Source of the DNA: Candidatus Bathyarchaeota archaeon
GTDB lineage: Archaea; Thermoproteota; Bathyarchaeia; TCS64
Length of the DNA: 64,000 nucleotides
Direction: 5' to 3'
Assembly: GCA_963771885.1 (NCBI GenBank)
Contig: CAVYVF010000022.1
Coordinates: 1 to 64,000, forward strand
Shown: piece by piece, positions 3,750 through 38,734 of the stretch
How positions within the stretch are numbered: the first letter of the stretch is position 1
Layout: every line of letters starts with the position of its first letter
Made by a program: the position numbers and the translations under genes
The notes under the pieces: generated by a model
The model's database searches: none
Seen by the model: only the letters and a program-made list of their open reading frames with translations
What the model was told of the DNA's origin: nothing

Positions 3750-3766
3750 GACTATTTTTATAGTCT

Positions 3767-3794: not shown

Positions 3795-3801
3795 ATTACG
3801 G

Positions 3802-3935: not shown

Positions 3936-3943
3936 TTTGAAGT

Positions 3944-4016: not shown

Positions 4017-4115
4017 TTTTTAAAATAAGCATAACTACTCTTGACATTTGCAGTCATTAAACCATTATTCATATAAATAGCGAACAGTTATAATGTACAT
4101 TATAGAAGTGAAAAT

Positions 4116-4647
4116 ATGATAAGTTCTGAGTTAACAAGAGCGACAAGCCTTGCAATAGTATTGAGCGGCAGGATCTTTAACGACACAGGGGATGATTTTT
4201 TAAGAGAATCGATAAAAGATCAGCTTTTAGGCTTTATTGGGTATTTGACCCCGGATGAAGTCGAGCGAGCTTTTAGAAGATTTTCAGAAAATATTGGTTA
4301 TTACCTACTGGGAAACAAACATCAATATCTCTTTTGATATCAAAGTCAGAAATTTTTACTTTCATAGGTATTATCTATGAAAAACTAAATTTGTATGATC
4401 TGGCAATTGAATATCTGGAAGAAGCAGGAGATATTGAAAAAATGCCAGCGCTTTTATTAGCGCAAAAACCGATTGGCATCTTTTACGGGCTCAGTTGAAT
4501 GCAAATATCAATCCATCCTTGGATGTTATTGAAAGGCTAAAAATAAATTTGCCGGTGCTTCTTAACTATTACAAGGAAATAGGCAACGAAGAAGCGCAAA
4601 TTGGAATCCGCAATGAACTTGAAAAAGTAAATTCTTTGAAAATCTAG
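4116..4647 (+). CDS. Hypothetical protein with a TPR-like helix pair, two apparent frameshifts
   Basis: The 4116-4337 ORF continues after a T-run as LISKSEIFTFIGIIYEKLNLYDLAIEYLEEAG, then after an A-run in a frame open to TAG 4645-4647. Confidence 0.5.
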
Positions 4648-4846
4648 GCGAAATAATTTTGCCGAAAGCTTGGGTGCAATAATGTGATTGTACCTATTTT
4701 TTTTATCATTTTTTTTGCTCAAAAAGCGGAAAATTTGATTTTTGCGGCAGGGGAATTAGGTTTTAGGGATTTGCCTTGTTAACTAAATATTAGGGGTGTA
4801 TAATTTGAGCAAAAGAAAGGTTTTTTTAAATAACTTTTATTGTATT

Positions 4847-5602
4847 ATGAAAATAACAATTTTGTGCGAAAATACGGCAGGACGCGAAAACAATAAAATT
4901 TGTTTGGCAGAGTGGGGCTTTTCCGTTTTTATTGAAACAAAAGATATAAATATTCTTTTCGATACCGGACATACGGATGTTTATAGAGTTAATGCAAAAA
5001 GGTTAGGCATAGATTTAGAAAAAAGTAATTTTGTGATTTTGTCCCATCGCCATTGGGATCATACCGGCGGAATAAAATTTAATGATTTTAAAGCAAAGAA
5101 GAAACTTATTTTTCATCCGGGGTTGCTCAATGCATTGCCAGAAAATGAGGCGAAGAAAATAAAGGATGATTTTGAAATTGTCGTATCTGAAAAATCTTTA
5201 GAATTTTCAGAAGGTATTTATTTTTTAGGCGAAATTCCAAGGGTAAATAATTTTGAAAAAGGAGAATATAAAGGCGATAAAATATTTGAAGATTCCGCTA
5301 TAGTTTTTAAAACTTTAAAAGGCATGATCGTAATTGCGGGGTGTTCTCATTCAGGTATAGTCAATATTTGTGAATATGCCAAGCAGGTAACCGATCAAAA
5401 ACTTTATGCGGTTGTCGGGGGATTTCATTTATTTGAAGAAGATGAAAAAGCCGTGAACGGTGCGATTGAATATTTCAAGAAAGAAAAACCAAATTTTATC
5501 TATCCGATGCATTGTGTTGATTTTCCGACATTAGCAAAATTTCATACGGTTTTCGGAATTAAAAAATTATCAACAGGGGATAAAATAGAGTTTGACATTT
5601 GA
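4847..5602 (+). CDS. MBL-fold metallo-hydrolase (dihydropterin/methanopterin-synthase-like subfamily)
   Basis: MKITILCEN, EWGFS, FDTG, SHRHWDHTGG, GCSHSG, GGFHL, PMHC motifs. Confidence 0.9.
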   Translation: MKITILCENTAGRENNKICLAEWGFSVFIETKDINILFDTGHTDVYRVNAKRLGIDLEKSNFVILSHRHWDHTGGIKFNDFKAKKKLIFHPGLLNALPENEAKKIKDDFEIVVSEKSLEFSEGIYFLGEIPRVNNFEKGEYKGDKIFEDSAIVFKTLKGMIVIAGCSHSGIVNICEYAKQVTDQKLYAVVGGFHLFEEDEKAVNGAIEYFKKEKPNFIYPMHCVDFPTLAKFHTVFGIKKLSTGDKIEFDI

Positions 5603-5777
5603 TTAAAATGTATGGAAGAAAATATCCCGCATGGTTTACATTGTTTCATGAAATCTTCGATTTTGGGTATGAAAAAAGTGCAGGTGAGGAAAGTGTCGAG
5701 AGAGTTGATCGCGAAAATTGTGAAATAACGCCTGATGTTTTTTGGTTTTACACGTTCTTTTTTTAATTTGTCATTTA

Positions 5778-5786
5778 TGGTATAAT
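5778..5786 (+). promoter_or_regulatory. Extended -10 promoter for the 5816-8167 operon
   Basis: TGGTATAAT ~30 bp upstream of ATG 5816. Confidence 0.55.
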
Positions 5787-5815
5787 AGAATCATTGGTAA
5801 AAACTCTAATATAAT

Positions 5816-6411
5816 ATGAACAACGAAAAAAAAGAAGAAAAAAAGAAATTAAAATCAGGAGATTGGCTTCTTTTAATATTATATTCAAGTGGTATCAATG
5901 AGGATATTAATGAACCAATAACAGGAAAAACTAGGCTGGTAAAATTGATATTTGTTTTTGAGAAAGAATGTCTTCCTCTTTTTAAAAAGGGTGATTGTGC
6001 AATTGATGAAAATAGTTTACCAGAATTTTTTGCCTGGAAATTTGGTCCAATGTCAAAAGACGTTTTAGAAGATTTAGATTTTTTTATTAAAATTAAGTTT
6101 ATCCAGCAAACAGAAGTAAAAAATTCTTTTGCGTTTGAGGAAGCAGAAGAAATATCTTCATTTGCTGCTGATAACTCTCTAGAAACTAATTTTGAGCGTG
6201 ATTATATAGATTATACATACGTATTATCTCCAATTGGCAAAAGTATGTGGAGGAAAAAATACTTTTTTGTTTTAATGCAGATGAAATTAAGCTTATAAGA
6301 GAGTTAAAGAGCAGGTTTAATAAAGCAACGCTTAAGGAGGTGCTGAGATATGTTTATGAAAAATATGAAGATTACACCGATAAAAGTATCATTAAAGATA
6401 ATATTTTGTAA
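5816..6411 (+). CDS. YwgA/DUF4065 (Panacea/SocA-like) winged-helix protein, one apparent frameshift near 6241
   Basis: ITGKTRLVKLIF, FFAWKFGPMSKDVLEDLD, YVLSPIG; shifted frame gives KYVEEK...LKEVLRYVYEKYEDYTDKSII to TAA 6409-6411. Confidence 0.65.
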
Positions 6412-6419
6412 TATTTGCT

Positions 6420-6956
6420 ATGGAAACAGATCTTTTTAATTCAATTATTATTAGTGTGATTCCTATAGTCTTTGGTATTATTATACCTTTTGTGGATTTT
6501 TTTAACATTGGATATAAGGAATCTGACGTTTATTTTAAAAAAAAGACGAAATCTGTAAAAAAAGAAAAGTTAGATATTTTAGATCGAATTGTTATGATCA
6601 ATGGAAATAATTATATAGATCAATTGTCGCAGAACGCTGTTGGATTAGGGGGTGACTATATGGAAGGTTTGTTAGAAAAAATTGAAAAAGTATTATTGTT
6701 TGAAAAAAAATTGAATCATTGTGTAAAAATATTTAATATATACTATTGTTCATTTATAATAATTTTTGCCTTTGGGGTAATTTCTTCTTCCTTGTTGTAT
6801 ATTTATGATTATAATTTTTTTAATTATTTTACTTCATATGGAATTGATTCTAGAAAGGTTTTAATATTAGTAATTGTTTATTTTTTAATTGCCTCGCTGT
6901 ATTTTTTTATAATTAAAAAAAAATTAGAAAATAAATATGGAGAACCTAGTATATAG
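6420..6956 (+). CDS. Hypothetical membrane protein (about 3 TM segments)
   Basis: One N-terminal and two C-terminal hydrophobic stretches; overlaps the next ORF by 20 bp. Confidence 0.75.
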   Translation: METDLFNSIIISVIPIVFGIIIPFVDFFNIGYKESDVYFKKKTKSVKKEKLDILDRIVMINGNNYIDQLSQNAVGLGGDYMEGLLEKIEKVLLFEKKLNHCVKIFNIYYCSFIIIFAFGVISSSLLYIYDYNFFNYFTSYGIDSRKVLILVIVYFLIASLYFFIIKKKLENKYGEPSI

Positions 6957-7381
6957 TGAAAAAGAAATGGTTATTAAGTTCTGCGAAGTTCTTCAGAGAG
7001 AAAATAAAAATTTTTCTGTTGAAGTGCCATTTTTTAATAGAAGTATAGATGTTGTATACCACGACGATGATAATAATTTTTACTGTTTGGAGTTTAAATT
7101 AAAAGACTGGAAGAAAGGAATGATTCAAGCAAGAAATTGTTCTCACGGAGCCGAATTTGTTTTTATATGTTTGCCTAAAGATAAATATAGTCGAAATATA
7201 AGAAAAGAACTTAAAAAAAATAAGTGTGGGTTAATATTGTTTGATATTAAAAAAAAGAAAATAGAGAAAAAGTTAATTCCTTTAAAAAATAATGTTTGGG
7301 GAAAAAGGTAAATCTATACTGAAATCAGGATTTGAATATTCGGTCAAAAACGAGAATTTTAAACTACTTTTATCTGTATAA
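6937..7381 (+). CDS. Small PD-(D/E)XK-fold nuclease-like protein
   Basis: SEKEM...EVPFFNRSIDVV...CLEFKLKDWKKGMIQA; ORF stops at 7311 but removing one G of a G-run extends it to TAA 7379-7381. Confidence 0.7.
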
Positions 7382-7390
7382 TATATATTT

Positions 7391-8167
7391 ATGACACATT
7401 GTTTGAGATTTGGTACACATGCAGATCAAAAATATTTTTGGGAGAATGGTTTTGATAATCTTTATGATAATATTGCCATTAATGCTAATATGATTGCATT
7501 TTCACCAGAAGCGTTAGCTGCTTTTATTGTTAAGAAAACACCTCGGAAAAGTTTTTTTATTGATCCTATTACTCATGCTTTTCAACATGATCAATCTTTT
7601 ATATGTGATGTAAGTGGAGAAAATAGAATTAAAAAGTCGATTGGAAATTTAATAGAAGAGTATGGAAAAGATTTAAAAGATATAATTTCTGAAGAAAAAG
7701 TTGGTGAAAATAATAAAACTCGGCTTTATGCAAAGAAAAAATTAGTGCCTGAAGACTTTACGAAGTTGTTTATTGAGTCTTTTTCTAAAAAAGTTATTAG
7801 TTTCCAAAAAAATATTATATTAAAGAAAAAGGCAGAAAGTTATATTGATTATATTACTTTTGCTAAAAAAGAAGATCCGAAATTGGATTTTGTTCCACAT
7901 TTAAATCCAAAGTTTCTTGTTGCTCCGTATTTTTATTTAGACGACATAGGGTGGTTAGACGTTAATATTCGCCTTATAGATGAATCCAAGAGAGATGGAA
8001 ACGAAATAGTTTATGCACAAATTGTTTTGAGTAAAAAATGGATTGAAAGAGCGATCGCAGGGGGGTATGCAAATAGTGAATTAGCAAAAAACATTATTAA
8101 TAGATATAAGACAAGTAATGCCGATGGATTTTTGGTATGGATTGATAATTATTCAGAACATGAGGAA
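7391..8167 (+). CDS. Probable TIM-barrel protein (TGT-like / sce7725-beta-protein-like), 3'-truncated at the junction
   Basis: Alternating strand/helix motifs IAINAN, FFIDPITHAFQ, FLVAPYFYL, VYAQIVLS, DGFLVWIDNYSEH; natural sequence ends at SEHEE. Confidence 0.45.
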
Positions 8168-24453: not shown

Positions 24454-24658
24454 CTCAGTTTGCACCCGCCTCTCCCCCTTACCCCATATCAACGAGTTGC
24501 GCCGCGGCGTAAAGAAACGATGAGTCAAGCCGTTTCTGCGCCATATTTTTAACTGGTTGAAATCAAGTCGACGAGCGACCACCAAATCGCTGCAGTCTCG
24601 CCCCCATAAATGTTATAGCCATAGGGGATTGTACTTGGCTATGCTCTATGAGGGCGAT

Positions 24659-25309
24659 ATGATGAGGGTCGTGCTTCTCGGTCCACCTGGCTCTGGTAAG
24701 GGTACCTGCGCGAAGATCATCGGCGAACTCTACGGCGTCCCCGTAATTACAACGGGGGACATGCTGCGAGCTGCTGTCTCGAAGATGACGCCTCTCGGTG
24801 TCACAGCGAAGGGCTACATGGATCGGGGTGAGCTAGTGCCCGACGACCTCGTCAACGACCTCGTCGCGGAGAGGCTCAAAGAGCCCGACGCTGCGGACGG
24901 CTTCATACTCGACGGCTACCCCAGGAGCCCCAAGCAGGCGGAGGCGCTGGAGAAGGTGCTCAGAGCGACCGGAAAGAGGCTCAACCACGTCCTACACGTC
25001 ACCCTCGAGGACCAGACGATAATTGACAGGCTGAGCAATAGGCGCAGCTGCCCCAAGTGCGGCGCCGTCTTCCACCTCGAGAACAAACCGCCGAGAAACA
25101 CGGGCAGGTGCGACGTCTGTGCAACAGCCCTCGTGCAAAGAAACGACGACAAGCCCGAGGTAATCAAGCGAAGACTCGAAGTCTACCGAGAGAAGACCCA
25201 ACCCCTCCTCGACTTCTACGAGAAAAAGGGCAAGATCAAGCTAATCAGAGGCGACATCGACCTCAGAGAGCTGCCCGCCGCGCTGAAGATTGTTCTCGGT
25301 CACGACTAG
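24659..25309 (+). CDS. adk: Adenylate kinase (bacterial type, Zn-lid)
   Basis: GPPGSGKGT, TGDMLR, GELVPD, LDGYPR, CPKC...CDVC, QRNDD. Confidence 0.93.
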   Translation: MMRVVLLGPPGSGKGTCAKIIGELYGVPVITTGDMLRAAVSKMTPLGVTAKGYMDRGELVPDDLVNDLVAERLKEPDAADGFILDGYPRSPKQAEALEKVLRATGKRLNHVLHVTLEDQTIIDRLSNRRSCPKCGAVFHLENKPPRNTGRCDVCATALVQRNDDKPEVIKRRLEVYREKTQPLLDFYEKKGKIKLIRGDIDLRELPAALKIVLGHD

Positions 25310-25358
25310 CGACGCGCACGCGCAGGGTATATGAGGCGGATGCGGAGAGTTTTCAAGC

Positions 25359-25996
25359 ATGGTCGATGAGCGCCCCGACGAGAAAGACAGAAAGGTGCCT
25401 GACTGGGTAAGGGCTACTTTCTGGGGCGACCACCCTGATAGCCTCGCCCCCTACGTTCCAAGCCCCCTCAGTATAGTAAGGGAGATGCTCAGCATCGCCG
25501 GCGCGGGGCCTGGTGACGTTGTCTACGACCTCGGCTGCGGCGATGGACGCGTCCTCTTTACCGCGGTCAAGGAGTTCAACGTCTCACGCGCCGTAGGCTA
25601 CGACCTCGACCAGGAGATGGTCGACATGGTGGAGAAGAAAGTGAGGGAAGAAGGGTGATCGGGCGCATCTCCGCCATACAAGCGAATTTCATGGAGGCAG
25701 ACATGAGCGAGGCGACGATCGTCACCCTCTACCTTACGACGAGCGGCAACGCGAAGCTGCGCCCAAAACTGGAAGCCGATCTCAAGCCAGGGGCGAGAGT
25801 CATAAGCCACGACTTCCCCGTCCAGAGCTGGGTCACTGAACTCCCTGACAACGCACCGCACATAATGGGGAGTCACAAGGTGTACCTCTACCGCATCCCC
25901 GACGCTTACAGGAAGGAGGCGCTGCATCCTAAGGAAGACAACGAGGATAGGTGGAGGCGCGTCCGTGACATGTTCACGAGGATTGACCAGGGCTGA
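25359..25996 (+). CDS. Class I SAM-dependent methyltransferase, split by an apparent frameshift at ~25655
   Basis: APYVPSP, YDLGCGDGR in the first ORF; ATIVTLYL, LKPGARVISHDF in the second. Confidence 0.85.
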
Positions 25997-26057
25997 CCCC
26001 GCATTCATACGCGCGCACCCTTTTAGGCGCGCCTGCACGAAAAGAAATTGATACTGT

Positions 26058-26993
26058 TTACTTGACGACACCGAGGGCGAGGGCTATGAGAGCCATCCTC
26101 GTGTAGACGCCATGCTTAACCTGCTTGAAGTACCAGGCGTTCGGCATCGAGTCAACATCCGTCGTGATCTCGTTCACGCGTGGCAACGGGTGCATGAGGA
26201 CCAGGTCCTTCTTCCCCCTCTTCACCATAGCTGGGTCAATTACGTAGGCGTTCTTCAGCTCCTCATACTTCGCCGGGTCGGTGAACCTCTCCTTCTGGAT
26301 GCGGGTATCGTAGAGGACGTCGAGCTTGGGGATGACCTTAGCGAGGTCGCTGCCCTCATTGACCTTCATCTTGAGGTCCTTCCGGATGTCATCCTTCATC
26401 ATGAGCTCCTTGGGGCTGATTAGGTAAAGCTCGACGTCGAAGTGGTTGAGGGCGAGCGCAAGGCTGTGCGTCGTACGCCCATATAGAAGGTCGCCGCATA
26501 GACCGATCTTGAGCCCGTCGATGTTACCCTTCGCGTACTTCATCGTGTGAAGATCAAGGAGCGCCTGGGTTGGATGTTCGCCGGAGCCAGCGCCGCCATT
26601 AAGGATCGGAATCTTGGCAGCAGCCGCGGCGCGCACTGCAGAGTCGATCTCAGGGTGACGCATCGCGATTATGTCAGCGTAACACTCAACAGTCTTTATA
26701 GTATCCTCCAAGGTCTCCCCCTTCTTCACCGAGCTTGCACTTGGGTCGCTGAACCCCGTGACGCCTCCGCCGAGGCGGAGCATAGCGGTCTCGAAACTAA
26801 GGCGCGTACGTGTACTCGGCTCCCAGAATAGCGCCGCAAGCACCTTACCTGCGCACAGGCTACTCGGCTTCTCCGCCACCTTTACCATATCGGTCGCCTG
26901 GTCGAGGATGAAGTCTATCTCCTTGCGACCATAATCTCGCATGGAGAGGACGTCCTTGCCCTTGAAGTCAGATGCCTTTACCAAAGTGATCAC
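26058..26993 (-). CDS. pyrB: Aspartate carbamoyltransferase catalytic subunit
   Basis: EPSTRTRLSF, KGETL, HPTQALLD, GRTTHSL, RIQKER, HPLPR. Confidence 0.96.
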   Translation of the reverse strand: MITLVKASDFKGKDVLSMRDYGRKEIDFILDQATDMVKVAEKPSSLCAGKVLAALFWEPSTRTRLSFETAMLRLGGGVTGFSDPSASSVKKGETLEDTIKTVECYADIIAMRHPEIDSAVRAAAAAKIPILNGGAGSGEHPTQALLDLHTMKYAKGNIDGLKIGLCGDLLYGRTTHSLALALNHFDVELYLISPKELMMKDDIRKDLKMKVNEGSDLAKVIPKLDVLYDTRIQKERFTDPAKYEELKNAYVIDPAMVKRGKKDLVLMHPLPRVNEITTDVDSMPNAWYFKQVKHGVYTRMALIALALGVVK

Positions 26994-27036
26994 TAACGCC
27001 TCACTCTGGGGTTTCTCCCCTTAAAAGTTTGAGGGA

Positions 27037-27474
27037 CTAGAACTCTGGATATAGATCCATCCGCTTCAACAGGTCCACGAGAGTCGGCGACATCTCATAC
27101 CTGTGGAAGTCACGGGGGTGTACCCAGCAAGCCTCAAGAGCATCATCCATAGCATGCATCTCCCCCGACGCGGGCTCAGCCAAGTAGTCAACTATTACGA
27201 AGTGATACTTGACCTTCCCCACCTCGTCGTTGACTATCTTATCTACAACACCGAGGTCCTCAACAAGCTCAACATCAAGCCCCGTTTCCTCCTTAGCCTC
27301 CCTGACGGCAGCGTCGCAGACCTTCTCACCTATCTCCACCATACCACCGGGGATGGACCACATCCCCTTATCGGGTTCAGAGGCCCTCTTAATCAAGAGG
27401 TATTCCTCGCCGACCCTGATGAGGACGCCGACGCCCACCATAGGGCGATCTGGGTAAAGGCGGCCGGGGCTCAT
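27037..27474 (-). CDS. NUDIX hydrolase
   Basis: PGGMVEIGEKVCDAAVREAKEETGL Nudix box. Confidence 0.92.
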   Translation of the reverse strand: MSPGRLYPDRPMVGVGVLIRVGEEYLLIKRASEPDKGMWSIPGGMVEIGEKVCDAAVREAKEETGLDVELVEDLGVVDKIVNDEVGKVKYHFVIVDYLAEPASGEMHAMDDALEACWVHPRDFHRYEMSPTLVDLLKRMDLYPEF

Positions 27475-27524
27475 ATGACACCGATTGAAGGTTGGGAGAC
27501 GCCCCCGTTTAAGGATTCACTGGA

Positions 27525-28511
27525 CTACTTTACCTCGACGACGAACTGCCGAGTGTTGCAGGCACGGTTCTCATCATCACCGATGAAGCGTATGTAGAGT
27601 TCAGCCGCGTCGTCGAAAAAGTCGACCCTTTTCGCCGTCCACTCAATTGCATAATTGCCTTCGGAATCTGTCACACTCTCGACGAGTAGATCGTCTTTGC
27701 CTATGTCCCTCTCGTAGAGGTTGACGGGTGAATTGGGGAGAGGCTTACCTGTAGCGACCACCTTCAGCTTCCCCCTGAAAACCAGCTTCTCACCGACCCT
27801 CACCTTCGTCGGCGGTAAATCGAGTGAACACATAGTCGGCGTCGGCCCCATCCTTATGCCTGGCCTCTTTTTCTGGATAATCTGGCTCAACACCAGGCTA
27901 TTCGGAATGAGTATATCCAATGAGCCATCGAGCGACTCGAGAATGAGATGCATAATATGTAACTCCTTAACCTTCCCCGTGTTTGTAGCGATCGTGATCG
28001 TATCACCGAACGTGAAAGGGCGGGTGATGAGAACAAATATACCCGCAATTACGTTCGAGATGAAAGTCTGTGTGGCAAAACCCACAACGAGGCCACCGAA
28101 GCTCCCGAGCGTAAGCGCCGCAGCCGGGTCCAAGCTGAACACCGAGGCGAGCACCGCCAACAACACGCCGTAGCCGACTATCCTCGTCACGTTCTGAACA
28201 GTCGCCGCAGAGGAGTGGTCAGAGAAGCCCCTCATGTAAGCATAGACTAAACGCCCAGCTTCACCTACTATGAAGTGACCCAGAACCAGAATTAACGCCG
28301 CATTAATGTAACGCAGGTAAGGGTTGACGAACAGAAGCACAGAGGCATAAGGCACCAGAACGGGGGGGACATGTGCTATGTCCGTCCACTGGAACAGAAA
28401 CGTCAAGCCCGTGAGGCAGAGGCTCGCCAGGACTAGGAGTACAAATATCTTGAGTAGGCTCTTACCGTAGTTGATTCGCCTTCTCTTGATCGGCGTGGGA
28501 GCGGCTTCCAT
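27525..28511 (-). CDS. MscS-family membrane protein with C-terminal Ig-like domain
   Basis: GLVVGFATQTFISNVIAGIFVLITRPFTFGD, IPNS; beta-rich tail GKPLPNSPVNLY...TDSEGNY. Confidence 0.8.
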   Translation of the reverse strand: MEAAPTPIKRRRINYGKSLLKIFVLLVLASLCLTGLTFLFQWTDIAHVPPVLVPYASVLLFVNPYLRYINAALILVLGHFIVGEAGRLVYAYMRGFSDHSSAATVQNVTRIVGYGVLLAVLASVFSLDPAAALTLGSFGGLVVGFATQTFISNVIAGIFVLITRPFTFGDTITIATNTGKVKELHIMHLILESLDGSLDILIPNSLVLSQIIQKKRPGIRMGPTPTMCSLDLPPTKVRVGEKLVFRGKLKVVATGKPLPNSPVNLYERDIGKDDLLVESVTDSEGNYAIEWTAKRVDFFDDAAELYIRFIGDDENRACNTRQFVVEVK

Positions 28512-28542
28512 GTACTCCGGAGTAGCGTATTTTGTTAAAAAA

Positions 28543-30058
28543 TTATTGGGCGACGGTGCTTGCCTCGAGCGCCATGTGGACGAATCTGCTCATCGGTGAG
28601 CTCAAGCTAGAGGCAGGGTAGACCTCCGCGAGCACCTTAACCCAGATGGGGAACCTGCACTTGAGCGCCGTGCCCTTTACAATCGCCTCCCCGGGTGGGA
28701 GGTCGCCTATGAGCTGCGAGAACTTGTCCCCCATTATCTCAGCCAGACGCTGCTTGTCAAGGTCCTCAAGACCATGACAGATGATGTTGTTTGCGCATTG
28801 GGTGATAACGGTCTTCTCCACCGTAGCGAGGCGCTGTGTAACGCACCAGAGGCCAACACCGTTGCGCCCCCCGTTCGTCGCTATTTCCTTGATGACCCCT
28901 AGAAGCTTGCCGCGGCTCTCCTTCTCACCTATCTCGAAGACGCCGTGCTGCGGTGCATAGTACATAGCCTCCTCGAGGACTACTATACAACCGAACTTCC
29001 TGTTCTCCAGCGCCTCCCCGAATATCTTCCGGAGGACCTGTGCGACGACTAGATGCTTCTGTTCCCACGTGTCCTTACCGTCGCTGAGGTCCATGATGAT
29101 AATCTTACGCTCCTTGAGGAGTTGGACGGGATCGAGCACGGTGGCTTCACCCTCAGGGATAAGCCGGCTCGTGACTATAGCGTTCTCGACCTGCGCACGA
29201 TATAGTTCCCACTCGTCTAACTTCTTGTTAAAACCCAGATTCTCAGGACTGACTATAGTGACGGCACGGCGGAGGTTCATCTTTGTCACCGTTGCCCCCT
29301 GCGCGTACAGTACCTTAAGCGCCTGTGTCAGTATCTTTGCGTTCCACCACGTCTTCTGCCAACCGAACTCGGCGACGTAGTCGTCCCACGGGATGTCTCC
29401 GGGTTGAAAGAAGCTGCTCCACGGCACCTTAAGCACCGCGCCTGAGCCAAGGCGGTCTGTTAGACTGCTGTACTCACCATCCTTATCGACTATGAAGAAA
29501 CGTACAGGGGGGCTGGCATTGGCAGCGCGCGCCACCATGCTAACGGCGGTCGTCGTCTTACCCGTCCCAACTGCTCCACAGATAAGACAACTCTGCCTGA
29601 TTAGAGGATAGAGCCCCAACTCAACATCCAAATCCGTGGTCGGGTCTGTACCAAGGAGGAGCTTCCAACTCCCCATTCGGCTTCGTGAACTTGCCGATTA
29701 TCTCGCGCTCGGCCACATAGACAGGCGTGTTCGGGGCGAGCGGGTAGCGAAGCGGGCGTAGGCTACCGTCGCCATCCATCCAGCCCCACTGATACGCCTC
29801 AGCGTGAAGACTAGAGTCCTCGGCGTCGTCTATGACGCGTCCCTCGGTGAGTAGCGCCTCCTCATACTCGCGGACACGCTTATGCGGATAGACCCTTATG
29901 ACTTGGTATACGACGGGAGAGCCATTCTTTGGGTGCTTTACGTAGACGAGCTCACCCTTGGCAAGCTCTCTACCCCTCATCATAAGCACAGTGACCTTGT
30001 CGATGCCGTACTCGCCGGTCATACTATACGTGTGTCCTACCTTCAGGCTCCCATCCAC
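28543..30058 (-). CDS. herA: HerA/FtsK-family ATPase (HAS barrel plus ATPase), split by an apparent frameshift at ~29672
   Basis: HAS-like N-terminus (GELVYVKH); Walker A GAVGTGKT, VDKDGEY, Walker B VVLEEA, TQR, LPPGEAIV. Confidence 0.85.
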
Positions 30059-31110
30059 TTACCCTCACCCCAGTAAGGCGCAAGTCCCCGGATCTCGCCG
30101 GTGCGCCTACTAACCCTGCTCAACGCCTCACCATAGACATCAGCCATGAAGCGACGCGTAATCTTGACCTCCTCATCCGCCTTCACGATGGGTAGAGGTA
30201 TACCGTTACCAAGAGTAGAACCGTAACAATAGTCGGCGACATCATCAAGAGCCCCGAGGCAGTAAGCGGGCAGATCAACCCTGATCGGTGGTAGACTCCA
30301 CTCCCTCGTCATCCGACCGTAGAAGCTGTAAACGGGGACGTCGAGGCACCCCATGAACTCGGCAGGTCTACTCGCCTGCGCCAGCGCCGCCTTCGGCGAA
30401 AAGATGTCCGTCCGCTCCCCCGGCTTTAACGCGTGGAGAAGGAGGAAACTGTCCGACAGCTGTGTCTCACCCTGCAGTCCGAGATGATAGATGAGATAGC
30501 GGGCGCTCGGTCTCTTCACTATCCCTGCAACGGTGACGCCCACCTCCCTGCAGAAGCGGAGTAAGTGGTTAACTGCATCAAGCAGCCTCTTCTGATCCTT
30601 GTGGCATCCAGCCAAACGCCACCAGTCGCTGAACGCAAGAGGCCCGTCTATGAGCATTAACTCAGTGTCGGGATGAGCCTCGAGATATATGGCGGCAGTC
30701 TCGTATAGCTTCGCCTCTCGCCTCGCGTTCACCATCCCCTCAAACCTATTTCCCGCGACACCGTACGGCAGGGACATCGCCTCTGGGGACATCCAAAATT
30801 TCAAGGAGTGGGGAAGACTGTACGCGAGTGCACTTATAACGCCGTACCTCCTTGACGCGAGAGGCAGTATCTGACTCCCCGCGTCAACACCCACGACCCG
30901 CTTATACGACTCATGCTTCGTCATCGGATAGAGGCACATCCCCTCCCTGATCCTCGCAGCAAGCGCCGCCACCGTCGGCTGCTCTAATGAAACATCCCTC
31001 GAAATTTCGCCTAAAAGAAGATCCCGTATAGACAGGCTCAAGCCGCCGCTCGGCTTCACAACTTCAACAGCGCCGCCCGCCCGCCTTTCAAGACTCAGCA
31101 CTCGCCACAT
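30043..31110 (-). CDS. nurA: NurA-family nuclease
   Basis: VVGVDAGS, LMLIDGPL, AGIVKRP, SDSFLL...LKPGERT, PIRVD, GIPLPIVKADEEVKIT; overlaps the herA start. Confidence 0.82.
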   Translation of the reverse strand: MWRVLSLERRAGGAVEVVKPSGGLSLSIRDLLLGEISRDVSLEQPTVAALAARIREGMCLYPMTKHESYKRVVGVDAGSQILPLASRRYGVISALAYSLPHSLKFWMSPEAMSLPYGVAGNRFEGMVNARREAKLYETAAIYLEAHPDTELMLIDGPLAFSDWWRLAGCHKDQKRLLDAVNHLLRFCREVGVTVAGIVKRPSARYLIYHLGLQGETQLSDSFLLLHALKPGERTDIFSPKAALAQASRPAEFMGCLDVPVYSFYGRMTREWSLPPIRVDLPAYCLGALDDVADYCYGSTLGNGIPLPIVKADEEVKITRRFMADVYGEALSRVSRRTGEIRGLAPYWGEGKWMGA

Positions 31111-31140
31111 TGCCCCCAGATAAGCATCTACACAACACAT

Positions 31141-31300
31141 TTTTTCCAGAATATATAAAGTGATCGGATAGACTGAGCAACATTTGGCTTATATGCCATT
31201 TTATATATAAAGCGAGAAATTATAACGCTCATAAATCATACTTCACGAGCGCTTAGGTCAAAAACAAAGTTAATAAGATGTTTAGCCCAGTTCTAAACAA
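31141..31300. promoter_or_regulatory. AT-rich divergent promoter region with palindromes
   Basis: TATA-like ATATATAAA and TTATATATAA; TGTTTAG-N7-CTAAACA at 31279-31299. Confidence 0.6.
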
Positions 31301-31546
31301 ATGTCCGAGGAATTTAGTCTAAAGGACAAGGTTTTCCGCAGCTTCCTACAGGACCCAACGTTGGGCCCGGAGGAGATGGCGACGAAGCTCGGGGCGAAAT
31401 ATAACAGCGTCAAAGACGCCTTCGCCAAGTTGGCCAAAGAGGGACTCCTCCAGAGGAGTGGCCGTGGCAACTATGAGCCTAACTACGCAGGCATCATCAT
31501 CCACCTCATGGACAGAGTCGATGAACTTGAGAAGAAGGCGAAGTGA
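31301..31546 (+). CDS. Small winged-helix protein 1
   Basis: EEMATKLGAKYNSVKDAFAKLAKEGLLQRSGRGNY. Confidence 0.85.
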   Translation: MSEEFSLKDKVFRSFLQDPTLGPEEMATKLGAKYNSVKDAFAKLAKEGLLQRSGRGNYEPNYAGIIIHLMDRVDELEKKAK

Positions 31547-31803
31547 TGGTAGAACAGATCGAGAAAGCGACTCAGGAGCTTAAACCGGACACGGCGCAGT
31601 TCAAGGTCCTCGCCTACCTCGCGTTCCGTGGACCTAGTCCCCCGAGCGCGATCAGCTCGGAGACGGGCATCGCCCCAGGTACCGTGCGCCCCGCCCTTCG
31701 CAGCCTGTTGGACAAAAAATACGTCCAGCAGCAGGAGGACGGCACGTACAGGTCGAGCATCCCTTTCACAGATTTCGTCTCCCACATATTCGCAAAGAAG
31801 TGA
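31543..31803 (+). CDS. Small winged-helix protein 2 (TrmB/MarR-like fold)
   Basis: KVLAYLAFRGP, AISSETGIAPGTVRPALRSLLDKKYV, DGTY. Confidence 0.85.
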   Translation: MMVEQIEKATQELKPDTAQFKVLAYLAFRGPSPPSAISSETGIAPGTVRPALRSLLDKKYVQQQEDGTYRSSIPFTDFVSHIFAKK

Positions 31804-32066
31804 AAACGATGGTGGGTGTCGAGGAGCTTGAGGGGCTAAGGCGGGCGGAGAGCCAACAGCAGGTCTTCCTCTGCCTCGTCGAGAGCGGTGAGGCGATGAG
31901 CAGCCAAGAGATCGCCGAGAAACTCAAGCTAACAGTCAACGCAGTCAACATCGCACTCTTCAACCTCAAGAACAAGGGACTCGTCGACCCTGTCAGCCGA
32001 GGCGTCTACAGGTACAAACTCGGCCCAATACTCGTGACACTAATGAAGGAGTACTTCACGAAATGA
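31800..32066 (+). CDS. Small winged-helix protein 3
   Basis: MSSQEIAEKLKLTVNAVNIALFNLKNKGLVDPVSRGVY. Confidence 0.85.
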   Translation: MKTMVGVEELEGLRRAESQQQVFLCLVESGEAMSSQEIAEKLKLTVNAVNIALFNLKNKGLVDPVSRGVYRYKLGPILVTLMKEYFTK

Positions 32067-32317
32067 TCGCCAAGAAGCTCGACGAACTAGAGCCAGCGAC
32101 GAGCGCCTACAAGATACTCTGCCACCTCGCCTTCAGGGGCAGCGTGTTGAAACCACAGGAGATCGCGCACGAACTAGGCGAGAACGGCTCCACGGTTCGA
32201 GCACGTCTAGCAGAACTAAAGAAGCAGGGCCTCGTCGAGTCCAAGCCAGAGGGATACTACTCCATCGTGTCGCCTTATGACATCATCATGAAGCTGTACC
32301 GGGACCTCGGCAAGTAG
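32063..32317 (+). CDS. Small winged-helix protein 4 (paralog of protein 2)
   Basis: KILCHLAFRG, EIAHELGENGSTVRARLAELKKQGLV, EGYY. Confidence 0.85.
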   Translation: MIAKKLDELEPATSAYKILCHLAFRGSVLKPQEIAHELGENGSTVRARLAELKKQGLVESKPEGYYSIVSPYDIIMKLYRDLGK

Positions 32318-32395
32318 CCACTTTCAGGCGCCTCTCTCCTCGCATCAGCTAAGTATCGTTTAAAAGTACATGGGAGAAAGTGCACACCGTTAGAA

Positions 32396-32770
32396 ATGTC
32401 AGAGAAGCAGCTCGCCGACCTAAGGGATAGGACGGACACACTCCTCAAGCTCCGCAAAGCCCCGAGCCAATTCCAAATACTATTCCACCTCCTCAGTAAT
32501 GCCAGAACCATGGCAGTAAAGGAACTCTCTACGGAGCTAAGCCTCACCCCAAAGGCGACCGAGAGAGCCGTCGCGAAGCTACTTGAGAAGAACCTCATAC
32601 AACGTAGCCCATTCAAGGAAGGCTGCTACGCCTGCGACGCCAAGCAGATCGTGTTAAGTCTACTCGTCACCGTCTCGGATATGTACGAAGACTATGAGAG
32701 GACGCATCCTAGACTAGCGCAGCCTGCTTCTCCCGAATCGGTGGCAGAACCTCCCGCTCTACCCAATTGA
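32396..32770 (+). CDS. Winged-helix protein 5 (paralog of protein 3)
   Basis: LRKAPSQFQILFHL, KELSTELSLTPKATERAVAKLLEKNLI, EGCY. Confidence 0.82.
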   Translation: MSEKQLADLRDRTDTLLKLRKAPSQFQILFHLLSNARTMAVKELSTELSLTPKATERAVAKLLEKNLIQRSPFKEGCYACDAKQIVLSLLVTVSDMYEDYERTHPRLAQPASPESVAEPPALPN

Positions 32771-33191
32771 CGCCCTTAGCCGTCAACTTGTAGATGCTCC
32801 CCCGCCCCTCGGGGCGGAAGAGGACGCCCTTCTTAACCATCTCGTGCAACCGAGCCGGCACAATTACTTTACGCCCGCTCTCGTTGAGGCACGTCTTCAG
32901 CTCCTTCCCCGTAGCCTGATAACCCTTCATCGCGTAGAGCAGGAGACCTATCGCCTCGTAGTGGCTTATCTCCTCCTTACAGACAAGAATAGGGCCGTCC
33001 CTCCTCATATCGACGATGTCCTTAAGATGATCCAGCGCCTGCTTGGTGACCAAGCTGGACACCTTTTCGTTGAGTGTCGTCACATACTCCTGTGTGAGCC
33101 ACTCGAGGCCGCTGAGAAGCTCCTGGGGACTCTCCCCGGTAACCTGTATGTCACCGAACTGAGTCTTCACCGTCAGCGTGATCCTAGGCAA
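32709..33191 (-). CDS. Two-domain protein: N-terminal beta-beta-alpha module plus C-terminal winged helix
   Basis: ITLTVKTQFGDIQVTG; ARLHEMVKKGVL...YKLTAKG. Confidence 0.75.
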   Translation of the reverse strand: MPRITLTVKTQFGDIQVTGESPQELLSGLEWLTQEYVTTLNEKVSSLVTKQALDHLKDIVDMRRDGPILVCKEEISHYEAIGLLLYAMKGYQATGKELKTCLNESGRKVIVPARLHEMVKKGVLFRPEGRGSIYKLTAKGVNWVEREVLPPIREKQAALV

Positions 33192-33192
33192 C

Positions 33193-33636
33193 TCACTTGG
33201 CCTCCTGAGTGTTCATAGTGTACATGTATCCCCTCTTTTTGTCCTTGTATCTTCGGACGGTCCCCTTCTTCACCAACCAGACAAGGACTCCGGAGAGTGT
33301 CGTCTTAGGGAAGAAAACCGCGTTCGCTTCCATCGCCTCCCTGAGCTCAGCTATCGTGCGAGGGGTCTTCCCCCAAGACTCGGAGAGTAGCGAGGTCACC
33401 GCCTCGCTGCACTGCGTCGTCCGAGGGATCTGAGGCAGCGACTCGACCTCGTGATTTTCCACTGACTTCTTCGGGCGCTGCCTTGTGGCAGATGTCTCAG
33501 CGGGGAATGACGCCGAGACCTTCTCGATAATCTTAGGGAGCTCATCGAGCGTCGCGAGAACCTCCGATTTCTCCCCTCCGAGCTCCACCTCCATCTCCCC
33601 TATCCGAACCTTAAGGTGGAAAGGGGGGCGGCTCAT
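33193..33636 (-). CDS. Two-domain protein: N-terminal beta-beta-alpha module plus C-terminal winged helix
   Basis: LKVRIGEMEVELGG; RTIAELREAM...LSGVLVWLVKKGTVRR...GYMY. Confidence 0.78.
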   Translation of the reverse strand: MSRPPFHLKVRIGEMEVELGGEKSEVLATLDELPKIIEKVSASFPAETSATRQRPKKSVENHEVESLPQIPRTTQCSEAVTSLLSESWGKTPRTIAELREAMEANAVFFPKTTLSGVLVWLVKKGTVRRYKDKKRGYMYTMNTQEAK

Positions 33637-33639
33637 TGT

Positions 33640-33878
33640 CTCACAACTCGTATTAGAATAATATTATAGGGCTTATAACTCTTATCGAATAGGGAATCGG
33701 TGTTTCTACGATTTCGTTGAGTTCATTTATAATGAAAAATTAGCTTAATTTAACGCGTTTCGAGGGTCATTATGCCCCATAATAACAGCTATTGTCCCAT
33801 AAATAATGAATGATGGGGATGATAAGTTCATAATACGTTTTCTAATGTACTAATATTAGGAAAATAGAGAGGGGTTAC
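33640..33878. promoter_or_regulatory. Long AT-rich intergenic region with clustered palindromes
   Basis: TTCATT-tat-AATGAA, AAATTA-gct-TAATTT, AACGCGTT, ATTATG-ccc-CATAAT within 33722-33783. Confidence 0.55.
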
Positions 33879-35781
33879 TTAGCTGAGGGTAGCCCTGAGC
33901 TTAGCCGCGATCATCGCCTGTACATCAGCTGCTTTCGCCCTACCCCTGACTTCCCCCATAACCATCCCCATGATTGGCCCCGCCGCCTTCTCACCCATCT
34001 TGGCGACGATGTCCCTGCTCGCCTTTATCTTGGCCTCGACGATCGAGGCGAGTTGAGCCTCGGAGAGGAGACCGATCCCGAGGGCGGAGATAGCCGCCTT
34101 CGCCGGGTTCGCAGGGTTCTTGGCGAGCCACGTCAGCACGGCGGGAACGGACTCTTTCACGAGCTCTCCCGAGGCTACGAGTGCGAACACGTCCCTGAAC
34201 GCGTCGTCACTCAGCGCCTCGATGGGGACGCCATCTCTCTGCAACTTCTTCATCTCCTCAGTCAGCGTCACAGCCACGAGCGTGGTCAACGGATTGTAGT
34301 CTCGTGTGAGCTCTTCGAATAGGCTCATGTACTCCGAGTCAACTATCTGCCTGGCGAGTTTCTCGTTAAGACCGTAGTCTTTCTGGAACCGTTTGAGCTT
34401 GGTCTCAGGCATCTCGGGGAGACGCATCCTCAGTTCTTTGAGGTACTCCTGTGTGATAGTTATCGCCTTGACGTCGGTCTCGGGGTACATCCTAGCCGCC
34501 CCGGGGCGGGGGCGAGTGAAGCGCGTAGTGCCGTCGGGGTTTGCCGAGCGGGTCTCGAGAGGTATGCCAGTTGAAGACGTCCCTTGCCCGCTCCACGACG
34601 GCGGTGAGCGCCCTCTTCGCCTTCCCCGCCTCGTCTGCGACTATGACAACGGCGTCACCCTCGACGGCGCCTACTAGGCTGCGGAGCGCATCGACCTCGG
34701 TTTGCGTGATACTGTAGCCGGGCAGCTCGTCTGTGTGAAAGATGCCCTTGACGCCGCCGCGGAACTTTGCGTGGTCGCTCATCTCGGTGCCGAGGCGCCT
34801 GTTTGGGCAGAGCTCCCTGCCGGTGAGACCGGCGAAGCCTTGTAGCTTAATCGCCTTGACGACTCCGCCCGACTTCAGGGCGGATTTCAGTATCTTGGAC
34901 TCAGTCGCCTTGAATACGGCTGAGACATCTAGCTGCTCGTCGACGATATCGGCGGGCTTGATGCCTCGCTTGACCAGCTCATCCTTGATTTCAAGGAGAC
35001 TCATCTGGCGAATCGCCTCGTACTCGACGATGGTCGGCATCAGGGGCAGGTCTTGAACGCCCTTGATCTCTACGACTTTACCGTTCATTACAGAGACGTT
35101 AACATCTTGGCGGATCGTTCCGAGCCCCCGGCGTACCTTACCCGTTGCACGGAGGATACCGCCGATACGGAGCGCAACCGCCTGCACCTCTGCTGGGTCG
35201 TGCATATCCGGCGCCGTAGCGATCTCCATCAGAGGGATACCGAGGCGATCGAGGCGGTAGCGGACGATGCTCCCCTCCTCTCCAACGTTCCTCGCCGCGT
35301 CCTCCTCGAGGCTGATCTGCTGGATGCCATAGCTCTTGCCATCCACCTCGACAGCTCCGCCGAGGCTGACGACGCATGTACGCTGGAAGCCGCCAGTGTT
35401 GCTGCCGTCGACGACCGTCTTACGCATGACATGAACCTCATCCACGACGCGGCTGCCCACCATCAATGCGAAGCTGAGGGTGAGATCGAGAGTCTCTGGG
35501 TCGAGCGGCCCCGGGGGCTCCTCATCCATCTCGACGAGACAGCTCGTCGCGTGGTCCCCCTCATATTGGATCGTCTTCCCCTTCAGGAACTCGAAGAGTG
35601 CCGCGGGGTCGAACTCACCGAGCTCGCTCTGACTCGGGCGTAGTCTGCGTAAGAACTTGAACTCGGGCTCCGCTTCGCTGAGCATCGGCGGACAGCCGCA
35701 GAAGAGCTTGTGCTGGGTGGCGAGCTCTTGGTGGACCTCGATGCCCACCTTGAGGCCTATCTTCTTGTAGTCGACCATCAA
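33879..35781 (-). CDS. gatE: Glu-tRNA(Gln) amidotransferase subunit E, apparent frameshift near 34550
   Basis: GLKVGIEVHQEL, DGSNTGGFQRT, LDRLGIPL, GTIRQDVN, MYPETD. Confidence 0.95.
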
Positions 35782-37111
35782 GGCTCCCTCCTAGCGTACG
35801 GCGTCCGGGGGTTATACTCGCCCACGACGTTCGTAAGCAACAGTTTCCTCGCCTCCTCGGTGGTCTTCGTATTGCCGAGACTCCACATCATCTTGACTAA
35901 CGCCGTCTCGGGCAGCATGTCCTCGAGTGGCTCGACGCCACGGCGGGTCAGCTCTCGCCCCATGCTGTAGACGTTCATGTTTACGCGCCCCCAGATGCAC
36001 TGACTGGTCATCCCCATGAGAACGCCTGCCTTGCCGGCGCGCCCTATCGACGTCGTAGAGCATCTCGGAGACGTGACCGAGGCCCGTCCCCTCGAAGACT
36101 ATGCCCCTTGAACCCGGCGTCTATTAGGGAGTCGATTATCAGCGGGTTGAAGCCGGGGTGGAACTTGAGTAAGGCGACCTTCTTCTCGAACTTGTTCATG
36201 ATTACGGGTTCAGAGTCTTGACGCTGGCCTGTAGTGCTCCGCGAGCATCTCGAATTTACCGTCCCTATATCGGGCGATTGGGCTAGCGTTGACAGTCTGG
36301 AAGGCATAGCGGGCGCTGCTGTGGCACTTGCGCACCTTTGCGCCGGGGTGGAAAATGATGGAGTCGTCGCTCGTGCCCTCGTGCATACCGAGCGACGACC
36401 TCAGCGAAGGGCGCGTGCGCCGCCGCGTTCACGACCGCGACGAGGTTGGTCGCCGAGTCGCTGCTGGGGCGATCGCTGCTCCTTGGCTGCCGACGAAAAT
36501 GACGGGTACGGGCAGATTCTGAATAGCGAGGCTCAGTGCCGCAGTGCTGTACCCCATCGTGTCCGTGCCATGGGTGAGACGATGCCATCTAGCGCCCTGC
36601 TTGATCTTCTCCGCGACCCTTTTTGCCATCCCCTCCCAGTGATCCGAGTTGATGTTCTCGCTGAAGACACTGTAGAGGATATCCGCCTCGATCTGGGCTA
36701 TGTCGGCGAGCTCGGGGACGATGCTAAGAGGTCCCGGCTGGACATGGCGGCGTAGACCCCACCGGTGACATAGTCGACTCGGCTCGCGATGGTGCCACCA
36801 GTGCTTATGATGCTGACTTTCGGCAGCCCCTCCTTGACAGGGGGGAGTGGCGGCGGGCGGAACTCGGGTTTTTTCGCCTCGCCGATCTTCTCGACATGCA
36901 GATCATCCGTCTGCGCGATGCCGATGTTATAGCCAGTCTTCTGCTTTATGACGAGGTGCCAGTCGTCTGCGTTCTCGACGCGGGGCAGGAGAGTGCCCTC
37001 GTAGGCGTGTCCTCCCGTGTGGACCCGCACGACATCCCCGACCCCAATCTTCGCCTCTGTGAGGAGCTCCCTGAGCTTCCCCCTGTAGCCGGGTAGAGTC
37101 TCGGCGGTCAT
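35778..37111 (-). CDS. gatD: Glu-tRNA(Gln) amidotransferase subunit D, several apparent frameshifts
   Basis: TGYNIGI, STGGTIASRVDY, THGTDTMGY, SSDRPSSD, SQCIWGRVNMNVYS, DMLPETA across ORF fragments. Confidence 0.92.
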
Positions 37112-37158
37112 TTAGAATCAGGATTTCTACCGCCTCTCTCCGTATTAAGAGATGCGGG

Positions 37159-38734
37159 TCATAGGTGCTTTGAGACGTAGACGCCATCCTTCTCGTAGCC
37201 GAAGCGGGCGTAGTACCGCTTGGTGCCGAGGGCACTCATCACAACCATCTTGCGCATATCGTAGCGCTCGCGTGCGGTCTTCTCCGCCTCAGCCATAAGC
37301 GCCTCACCCCAGCCCCTGTGTTGCCACGCGTCGTTGCGGCGCTCACCCACGGGCACCATACGGCCGTAAACATGTAGCTCACGGATCAATCCTGTATATG
37401 TATCCAGCTCGGGGCGGAACGGGGTATATGGGAATCCTGAGCCTTACGAAGCCGATGAGGGCATCCGACTCCCTGTCCTCAGCCTGTATGAAGTCCTCCG
37501 TACCCCCGGATGCCTCGTAGACTGTGTGGGTGATTTCGACCCTCTTCGGGTCCGCCTTCTTGACCGAGTGACCCGCCTCACTGCACCTTATGCACCTGCA
37601 CTTGCCCCCACACGCCACCAGGCGGTCCTCAGCTAGCTGGCGAAGATTGCTCATGTCGACACCCGCTTCGATCCTGGGGAGGGGGATGTCGCGCTGGACG
37701 CGCATGATGCGAACCCAGGGCGGGGTAATCTCCATGACCTTTGACACAAGCTCCGCCGCGTCCTCAGTGGTCAGCGGGGTGTACTCGCCCCGCTTCCACC
37801 AGTCGTAGAGGCGCGTCCCCTTCACGACGAGAGTCGGGTATATCTTGAGCATGTCTGGCTTGAAGCGCGGGTCCTCGAAGATGGCGTGGAAGCCCTCGAG
37901 GTCTCTCTCGGGGTTTGATCCGGGTAGCCCCGGCATCATGTGGTAGCATATCTTGAGGGCGGAGTCCTTGAGGCGCCTCGTGGCGTCGACAACGGTCTGC
38001 ACTGAGTGACCGCGGTCAACCACGTTGTAGATGTCGTCGTAGACGTTCTGGACGCCCAGCTCGACTCGTGTGACGCCGAGGTCGAGCATCCCGCTGACGT
38101 CCTTCTCCTCGACGCAGTCGGGGCGAGTCTCGACGGTGATGCCGACGTTCCTTAACTTTGACTCCTCGGCGTTGAGCTTCGCCTCCGCGAGGTCTGCCGA
38201 GTGCTTGTCTGTGAGGGCGTCGAGACATCCCTTGACGAAGCCCTCCTGGTACGGACGGGGCGAGGCGGGGAATGTGCCGCCCATCACAATGAGGTCGACC
38301 TTGTCGACGACATGCCCGATGCTCTGGAGCTGCTTGACGCGCGCCTTAACCTGCCTGTAGGGGTCGTACTCATTCTGGGCACCCCGCATGGCGGCGGGCT
38401 CGTACCCAGTGTAGCTTTGTGGGCTGTCCTCGTCAGGTCCCCCGGGGCAGTAGGCGCAGCGCCCGTGCGGGCAAGGATATGGCGCCGTCATCACAGCGAC
38501 GATGCTGACACCGCTGAGGGCACGCGCCTCCTTACGGCGGAGAATAGGGAGGAGCAACTCGGCCTCCTCCTCGGTGAGCGTCGCCAGAACCTCGGAGTTC
38601 CGCGGAATCTGAGGCAGCTCATATGCACGTGCTACCTCTATCTTGACACGGTCAAGGTCAACCCTCGAGGGCTCGTCAATAGTTAGAAGCTTCTCTACGA
38701 TCTCCCTGAGGGCGCGATCCAAAACCGAGTCCAA
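37159..38734 (-). CDS. elp3: Elp3 tRNA U34 carboxymethyl radical SAM/KAT enzyme, apparent frameshift near 37400
   Basis: CPHGRCAYCPGG, MGGTF, ETRPD, ELGVQ, KIYPTLV; IRELHVYG, WQHRGWG. Confidence 0.95.

Follow-up and report, generated by a model that had tools for sequence, protein, structure and literature searches.

A conserved herA-nurA pair facing winged-helix genes in Bathyarchaeia, a possible DNA-end-processing module with its own transcriptional control

Why should an archaeal translocase-nuclease pair, HerA and NurA, be encoded opposite a row of seven winged-helix genes? The question is raised by a nine-gene locus in a 64,000-nucleotide stretch of Candidatus Bathyarchaeota archaeon DNA (assembly GCA_963771885.1, contig CAVYVF010000022.1, positions 1–64,000; hereafter the window). 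Its herA and nurA genes (herA2 and nurA2) lie on the minus strand, five small genes (w1–w5) follow on the plus strand at 31301–32770, and two further genes (c2 and c1) return to the minus strand at 32709–33636. This layout and the 16-bp overlap between nurA and herA (30043–30058), both put forward in a preliminary description of the sequence, were borne out. The locus is real, conserved and apparently undescribed, and the reading that we prefer, with middling confidence, is that it would form a DNA-end-processing module, inherited vertically as part of the chromosome, with dedicated control of its transcription. Its features are as follows.

28543..30058, minus strand: herA2, a non-canonical HerA ATPase/translocase of about 504 amino acids (aa) when intact (PF01935, 39.3 bits, over the cut-off)
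30043..31140, minus strand: nurA2, a NurA nuclease (PF09376, 45.1 bits, over the cut-off)
31149..31159, minus strand: TATA-like box, putative promoter of nurA2-herA2 (conserved block in an alignment of 34 spacers)
31175..31230, no strand assigned: 56-bp putative control element, GAGC-N2-AATTT ... TATA-like tract ... GAAATT-N4-GCTC (strict pattern)
31259..31277, plus strand: block resembling a transcription factor B recognition element (BRE) and TATA box about 25 bp before the w1 start, a putative leaderless promoter (34-spacer alignment)
31301..31546, plus strand: w1, an 81-aa single-domain winged helix with a C-terminal helix (weak Crp/GntR/TrmB helix-turn-helix matches below cut-off)
31543..31803, plus strand: w2, an 86-aa winged helix, paralogue of w4 (34% identity; PF09339 over the cut-off)
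31800..32066, plus strand: w3, an 88-aa TrmB/Lrs14-like winged helix (PF01978, 27.0 bits, over the cut-off)
32063..32317, plus strand: w4, an 84-aa winged helix (PF03444, PF09339 and PF01022 at or over the cut-off)
32396..32770, plus strand: w5, a 124-aa MarR-like winged helix (PF01047, 28.3 bits, over the cut-off)
32709..33191, minus strand: c2, a 160-aa two-domain protein (no Pfam family; AlphaFold2 pLDDT 83.7)
33193..33636, minus strand: c1, a 147-aa two-domain protein of the wX family (AlphaFold2 pLDDT 75.9; PF03965 at 21.8 bits against a cut-off of 22.6)

Within the order, NurA2 was present in all 36 genomes of the family and in all eight other genomes, and 33 of these 44 genomes supplied one locus each with wide flanks. 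All nine genes stood in order in 29 of the 33 loci, beside gatE-gatD-elp3 at one fixed core position, so that the linkage between the winged-helix cluster and nurA-herA is upheld in relatives; of the four incomplete loci, two ran into contig ends, one (G038) had no c1-c2 at the site and one (G024) lacked c2. HerA2 was 64–83% identical to the copy in G003 in eight relatives, exceeding the identity of pyrB, gatE, gatD and elp3 in each genome where this was measured. By comparison, the mre11-linked operon varies within the order: its HerAs fall into at least three lineages. Given universal presence, a single position and slow HerA2 evolution, as against that variable operon, the pattern is that of a core gene block and not of a defence island. 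Two copies of c1 in G032 (C4 and C39), and two copies of nurA with the element in G023 (C79 and C130), are due either to duplication or to bin contamination.

The arrangement extends beyond the order in another form. A search with c1 across 301 genomes of the phylum gave 68 matches, and the 40 neighbourhoods read revealed a recurring layout in which herA-nurA faces a winged-helix gene, wX, followed by c2b-c2-c1, often ahead of gatE. Comparison of c1 with wX profiles indicated whole-length homology (probability 99.0, E 2.9e-18, 130 columns). Strong wX matches (E ≤ 2.1e-38) came from 83 of the sampled genomes of the phylum, 23 of them in the class and 60 beyond it. In 81 of these 83, nurA lay head-to-head with wX at a distance of 90–369 bp, both misses falling at contig ends; the wX seed alignments were drawn from some of these 83 genomes, and kin among them are not independent. 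Of the genes between herA and wX, eight were compared with Pfam and five matched NurA, four of them over the cut-off; the Asp, Asp and Lys residues of NurA were common to all 14 such genes aligned. Matches of wX grade were absent from several large families of the phylum and from 45 genomes of this order, where the best hit (E 5e-15) was the c1 gene itself. Conversely, a search for w3 in 300 genomes of the phylum beyond the order gave no match at E ≤ 1e-8. The nine-gene block is thus a local form of a wider arrangement of wX facing nurA, in which w1–w5 and the 56-bp element of this order take the place of wX and a palindromic site.

That site, TTGNNCAA, occurs in 28 of 30 wX spacers (38 sites, compared with a mean of 3.2 and a maximum of 7 after shuffling), many of its copies just behind a TATA-like box, and in only one of 34 spacers of this order. 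With wX missing and TTGNNCAA all but missing in the order, and w3 missing outside it, regulator and site were exchanged together, and no other evidence speaks as strongly for control of nurA-herA transcription by the facing genes. The 56-bp element itself was recovered by strict pattern in 28/33 and 49/68 loci (overlapping sets), always at a length of 56 bp and between the two predicted divergent promoters. The preliminary description had called the spacers of the locus unusually long and AT-rich. AT-rich they are (32–35% GC), but 204 similar patches in the 2.08 Mb of the four main contigs make them unremarkable, and the c1-gatE spacer measures 42–509 bp in 26 of 27 relatives and 3502 bp in the remaining one; the distinctive feature of the nurA-w1 spacer is the conserved element.

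Elsewhere in this genome the core of the element recurs once, at C2:354568-354606; the two occurrences score 43.2 and 39.6, whereas the genome background does not exceed 11.1. The second precedes a gene for a 78-aa protein, with the core located 66–68 bp ahead of that gene in 23 of 24 loci and reaching at least 15 bits in 21 of 24. This gene has no Pfam match and occurs in 25 of the 36 family genomes and not outside the family. In this genome (G000:C2:354304-354606; L215, L352) it lies between an endonuclease IV-like gene, named by eye, and tRNA-Thr, and its start is frameshifted. The C-terminus of the protein resembles a PCNA-binding peptide, Q-x-x-L-x-x-Y, a likeness that fades in distant members.

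The arms of the 56-bp element also recall the damage-responsive element ANTTTC of Sulfolobus Orc1-2 (PMC6061795); in Sulfolobus, nurA and herA are damage-induced. Of 52 copies of the 56-bp element, 28 carry the hexamer in the left arm and 41 in the right. Unlike the Orc1-2 element, however, the arms flank a TATA-like tract, and the left arm of the window's own copy is without the hexamer. A general damage regulon was looked for and not found: the element is absent before both radA genes, both cdc6 genes and the mre11 operon of this genome, in which it again differs from the Orc1-2 regulon. Two strong RadA-family genes were seen in this one genome (G000:C2:254661-255371 and C22:127497-128210; E 1e-91 and 2e-86).

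The pair itself retains the sequence motifs of HerA-NurA. A herA2 profile (positions 7–477) had as its best PDB match the Sulfolobus-type HerA 4d2i (E 3.8e-41). Walker A, Walker B and the QR motif are kept in intact relatives, on which the check was made, the window copy being split: G166, K167 and E363 are invariant, and Q408 and R409 occur in at least 90% of 29 rows. In a 28-row alignment of NurA2, D86, D165 and K209 are invariant and E142 is found in at least 90%; by motif order these were equated with the catalytic residues D58, E116, D133 and K202 of the reference NurA (PMC3326311). A PDB sequence search with the NurA alignment reached no solved NurA. The true start of nurA2 is probably the GTG at 31101, where most relatives begin. 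The locus shares with canonical HerA-NurA (PMC3326311, PMC7690668; HerA structure 4d2i) overlapping nurA-herA genes, a HAS barrel with an ATPase domain, the motifs and the NurA residues. It differs in having its own HerA lineage and in facing winged-helix genes across the element, and the canonical HerA equivalog cut-offs were missed by the longer, 377-aa piece of the split gene (NF040937, 35.7 of 800 bits; NF040819, 30.5 of 970 bits).

Whether the genome has a separate canonical operon, a point raised by the preliminary description, could be answered directly. The genome contains two NurA genes and a second HerA; the second pair lies on contig C23 within nurA-herA-mre11-rad50, and its HerA is about 25% identical to that of the window over the alignable part. 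The kept linkage in relatives and this second operon with a distinct HerA support the earlier notion of a dedicated module. In HerA trees (FastTree, midpoint root; 87 rows, then 51 of the 87 without five long rows), HerAs linked to winged-helix genes formed three clades, X, Y and Z, each with a support of 100. X covers most lineages; the window type, G047 and G108 fall in Y. Z is the sister of Y (support 99 and 96), and both also include HerAs with no winged-helix genes nearby. No HerA linked to winged-helix genes falls within either of the two mre11-linked clades, to one of which the C23 copy belongs. Each of the three clades nevertheless has members that lie directly behind rad50-mre11: X (G049, G059, G194), Y (G047) and Z (G054). 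The window pair is therefore a separate lineage, yet not always an orphan; its description as one holds in this order, where none of the 33 loci has mre11-rad50, and fails more generally, since orthologous or sister pairs adjoin rad50-mre11 in these five other genomes. In G054 (L077/L216), rad50-mre11 is followed by Z and X herA-nurA pairs in tandem, four c-type genes and gatE. Eight Bathyarchaeia loci (L292–L297, L301 and L303) have mre11-rad50 with no herA or nurA seen beside them. At L208:5562-8156, the Walker A motif of an 864-aa HerA is interrupted by an insert of about 340 aa with a terminal His-Asn motif, as in an intein.

Among w1–w5, w3 is the best conserved, at 64–85% identity across the order, and the 3' end of w5 overlaps c2 by 62 bp. 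AlphaFold2 models of c1 and c2 consist of an N-terminal beta-hairpin with helices followed by a winged helix. For c2, the best structural matches were restricted to residues 70–160 (Z 11.5, root-mean-square deviation 2.5, 84 residues), corresponding to a PadR/MarR-like C-terminal winged helix; fold searches with both proteins matched the winged helix alone, with generic PadR/MarR/Fur-type folds. In the ESM Atlas, c1 and c2 fell among clusters of hypothetical proteins only, most commonly from Bathyarchaeota and Nitrososphaerota, which suggests that Nitrososphaerota are among the classes with the wider arrangement. A c1-c2 complex prediction scored 0.01 against a mark of 0.32, which gives no answer and is evidence neither way.

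BlaI/MecI/CopY repressors (PF03965) and archaeal regulators of the Lrs14/TrmB/MarR type share with the locus the winged-helix fold, a divergent gene layout and palindromic sites beside TATA boxes, and the PF03965 match in c1 spans residues 88–145, in the C-terminal half, with one distant homologue scoring 23.5. In c1, c2 and wX, however, the beta-hairpin domain comes first and the winged helix last, the opposite of the order in BlaI, where the winged helix is N-terminal. Scores were at or below the cut-offs for the BlaI and Lrs14 types, and w1–w5 stayed far under the 90-bit cut-off of the Lrs14 model NF040939 (best w3 27.2 and w5 26.3).

A wX profile search of 1.84 billion protein representatives additionally retrieved three ATPases of 479–550 aa (P0056, P0090 and P0095) that bear a wX-type winged helix at the C-terminus, joined by a coiled coil; two of them match DUF87, one over the cut-off. 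When these three and 119 relatives of P0056 were examined, 69 of the 122 proteins had a wX- or c1-like C-terminal domain (five at 71–113 bits, most at 11–37 bits) and 53 had none that could be seen. Walker A lies near the N-terminus of the fused ATPases, which therefore have no HAS barrel. The ATPase part of this family was not found at E ≤ 1e-20 in 151 genomes of the class. The fusions support cooperation of the wX winged-helix family with HerA-like motors in another subfamily, and our guess is that the fused family resides on mobile elements. For a physical coupling of the kind put forward in the preliminary description, in which heteromeric winged-helix proteins would coat or mark DNA and license or block the motor, this fusion family is the one piece of support. 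Exact-peptide scans of IMG/VR for P0151 and wX returned nothing, which is weak evidence. Longer wX proteins escaped a word-index search and were recovered by the full hidden Markov model search. This family of ATPase, coiled coil and winged helix is large and unannotated (also P0151 and P0152), some of its records being labelled Bathyarchaeota or Thermoproteota, and partial relatives of P0095 occur in G000 at C23:538876 and C17:484. P0070, of 245 aa, has a wX-type winged helix behind an N-terminal domain with no Pfam match.

The FtsK/SpoIIIE translocase carries a winged-helix gamma domain, and the present locus resembles it in ATPase superfamily and in that wX-type winged helices occur C-terminally on HerA-like ATPases, albeit of a separate family. 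In contrast to FtsK, motor and winged helix are here separate genes and the partner is a nuclease. No repeated polar sites were seen in a scan for the 56-bp element, which occurs twice in the genome.

In the preferred reading of a DNA-end-processing module, a HerA2 ring would feed DNA ends, driven by ATP, to a NurA2 nuclease dimer, as homology and the intact motifs suggest. The w1–w5 proteins would bind the 56-bp element and set the expression of the pair, of themselves and of the 78-aa gene; their position, their co-replacement with the site and the recurrence of the element all point to such control. Five different paralogues could form mixed dimers or a multi-input switch. As for c1 and c2, they would be what is left here of an older family of paralogues (wX, c1, c2 and c2b) that occupies the locus across several lineages of the phylum; this family probably belongs to the circuit or else gives local structure to the DNA, which is the weakest step. 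The module would most likely resect broken or stalled chromosomal DNA so that recombination can follow, in partnership with Mre11-Rad50, encoded beside the pair in some lineages and elsewhere in this one.

Several observations weigh against this reading. Seven regulators for one operon exceed the needs of simple repression, and the absence of the element before radA, cdc6 and the mre11 operon means that it does not mark a general damage regulon. The cassette is also separable from the pair: c1 of G038 sits on another contig; in 20 class loci picked through c1 or wX matches, c1-c2 lay about 5 kb or less from herA in 12 and apart in 8; and no nurA-herA was seen near the c1 homologues of L197–L200 or the short wX-like genes of L217–L220. 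Three deep HerA clades outside the mre11-linked ones may reflect a pathway that differs from canonical repair. Nor is the pair established as the sole resection machine anywhere, because genomes credited with a single NurA can hold more; the label of only NurA in the genome was dropped for other Bathyarchaeia after further NurA matches appeared in G056 and G131.

A more direct role for the winged-helix proteins is conceivable, though we regard it as doubtful: chiefly wX, c1 and c2 might be trans-acting, DNA-reading subunits of the motor that bring HerA-NurA onto marked DNA, set its direction or halt it there, in the service of chromosome segregation, dimer resolution or controlled resection, and this would be compatible with autoregulation. 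In its favour are the wX-type domains fused to HerA-like (DUF87) ATPases, as in the 69 proteins above, and a linkage that persists across three HerA clades, but the fused ATPases belong to another subfamily without the HAS barrel, and an element present twice in the genome is far from many polar sites. Moreover, the cassette stays while HerA-NurA swaps between clades that are about 20–35% identical, so that a DNA-level link fits better than a protein interface. Extended to its full form, this would be an undescribed machine of Bathyarchaeia and several related lineages, in which a beta-hairpin winged-helix family both controls and physically steers HerA-NurA as a split counterpart of FtsK-gamma, mobile elements having fused the same winged helix to their own motors; we offer it as an equally tentative idea. 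A regulated programme beyond repair, for instance the readying of DNA for passage to another cell or a switch into dormancy or a developmental stage, would turn the seven winged helices into a multi-state switch, and could accommodate both the separate canonical operon and the small private regulon with the 78-aa gene; in PMC9905601, HerA-NurA is proposed to make the single-stranded DNA substrate for archaeal DNA transfer. We consider such a programme unlikely, as the conserved neighbours do not include transport, pilus or membrane genes (mscS occurs in 5/33 loci only) and unlinked relatives of these HerAs neighbour unrelated housekeeping genes.

The neighbourhood might instead be conserved without shared function, with a repair-type pair and unrelated regulators merely settled next to gatE-gatD-elp3. 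The c1-c2 cassette is indeed often found with gatE while herA-nurA is elsewhere (L187, L189, L190), but nurA and wX are head-to-head in 81 of 83 genomes whatever the flanks, and palindrome and regulator change together, which leaves this explanation quite improbable. Defence against viruses or plasmids, of the kind that combines HerA with a nuclease and that the preliminary description had included among its suggestions, was not supported and is, to our mind, very improbable. The locus does place a HerA with an effector enzyme away from mre11-rad50, as HerA anti-phage systems do (NF042943, NF042944, PADLOC), another pair is available for repair, the PADLOC HerA matches are weak (best E 3.1e-20), and the best NCBIfam match is the anti-phage HerA NF042943. 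Yet that match, made with the 377-aa piece, reaches 48.4 bits against a cut-off of 800 (NF042944, 32.1 against 850), the partner is NurA, and nurA2, c1 and c2 have no PADLOC match. The locus is found in 44/44 order relatives at one core position with host GC, evolves more slowly than housekeeping genes and has no defence gene as a conserved neighbour, while the variable operon of the order is the mre11-linked one. On its sequence features, the locus would work like HerA-NurA, and it stands outside both the canonical operon and the HerA anti-phage systems.

We found no description of the cluster in the literature; arCOG tables in supplements or subscription papers may list it. How HerA-NurA is switched on and aimed is described as an open question in a review (PMC7690668), and the locus supplies candidate regulators, with the 56-bp element and TTGNNCAA as predicted operators. 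It also brings to light a winged-helix family that lacks annotation and is linked to nurA-herA across much of the phylum. Bathyarchaeia are among the most abundant uncultured archaea of sediments. Should the winged helices indeed steer the motor, archaea would gain a sequence-guided DNA translocase, with a bearing on the idea, reportedly due to Iyer et al. in 2004, that HerA pumps chromosomes.

The single herA gene of the preliminary description is present, but its frame is broken in two: an extra base at 29667 divides herA2 into pieces of 145 and 377 aa. This break is probably an assembly error, because neither the relative G003 (96% identity) nor a short-read contig of run X1 (97.6% identity) has the base, and because 21 single-base indels separate this assembly from G003 over about 17 kb, at window positions 24478–37547, several of them in gatE, gatD, elp3 and a methyltransferase gene. 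Other split genes of this genome are therefore suspect. Programmed frameshifting was ruled out, HerA being one frame of at least 500 aa in 32 of the 33 order loci; the exception, G002, has its herA broken at a different place.

The surroundings agree with the preliminary description. No tRNA gene was found across the window, no integrase, mre11 or rad50 among the open reading frames of 20–42 kb (read by eye), and no Rfam match in 27000–35000, and the coding GC of 55–58% is the same as that of the neighbours. The neighbour names pyrB, nudix, gatD, elp3 and adk were read from the sequences by eye, whereas mscS and the GatB domain of gatE were named from Pfam matches. Contigs of two RNA runs cover parts of nurA, w1–w5 and c2, which is not a sign of transcription. 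Beside herA2, at 27525–28511, lies an MscS-family channel gene encoding a C-terminal transthyretin-like domain, present at the site in 5 of 33 loci. The first 8000 positions of the window (1–8000) have a GC content of 23–42%, compared with 55–60% in the remaining window, and a strong positive GC skew, and are probably a foreign island.

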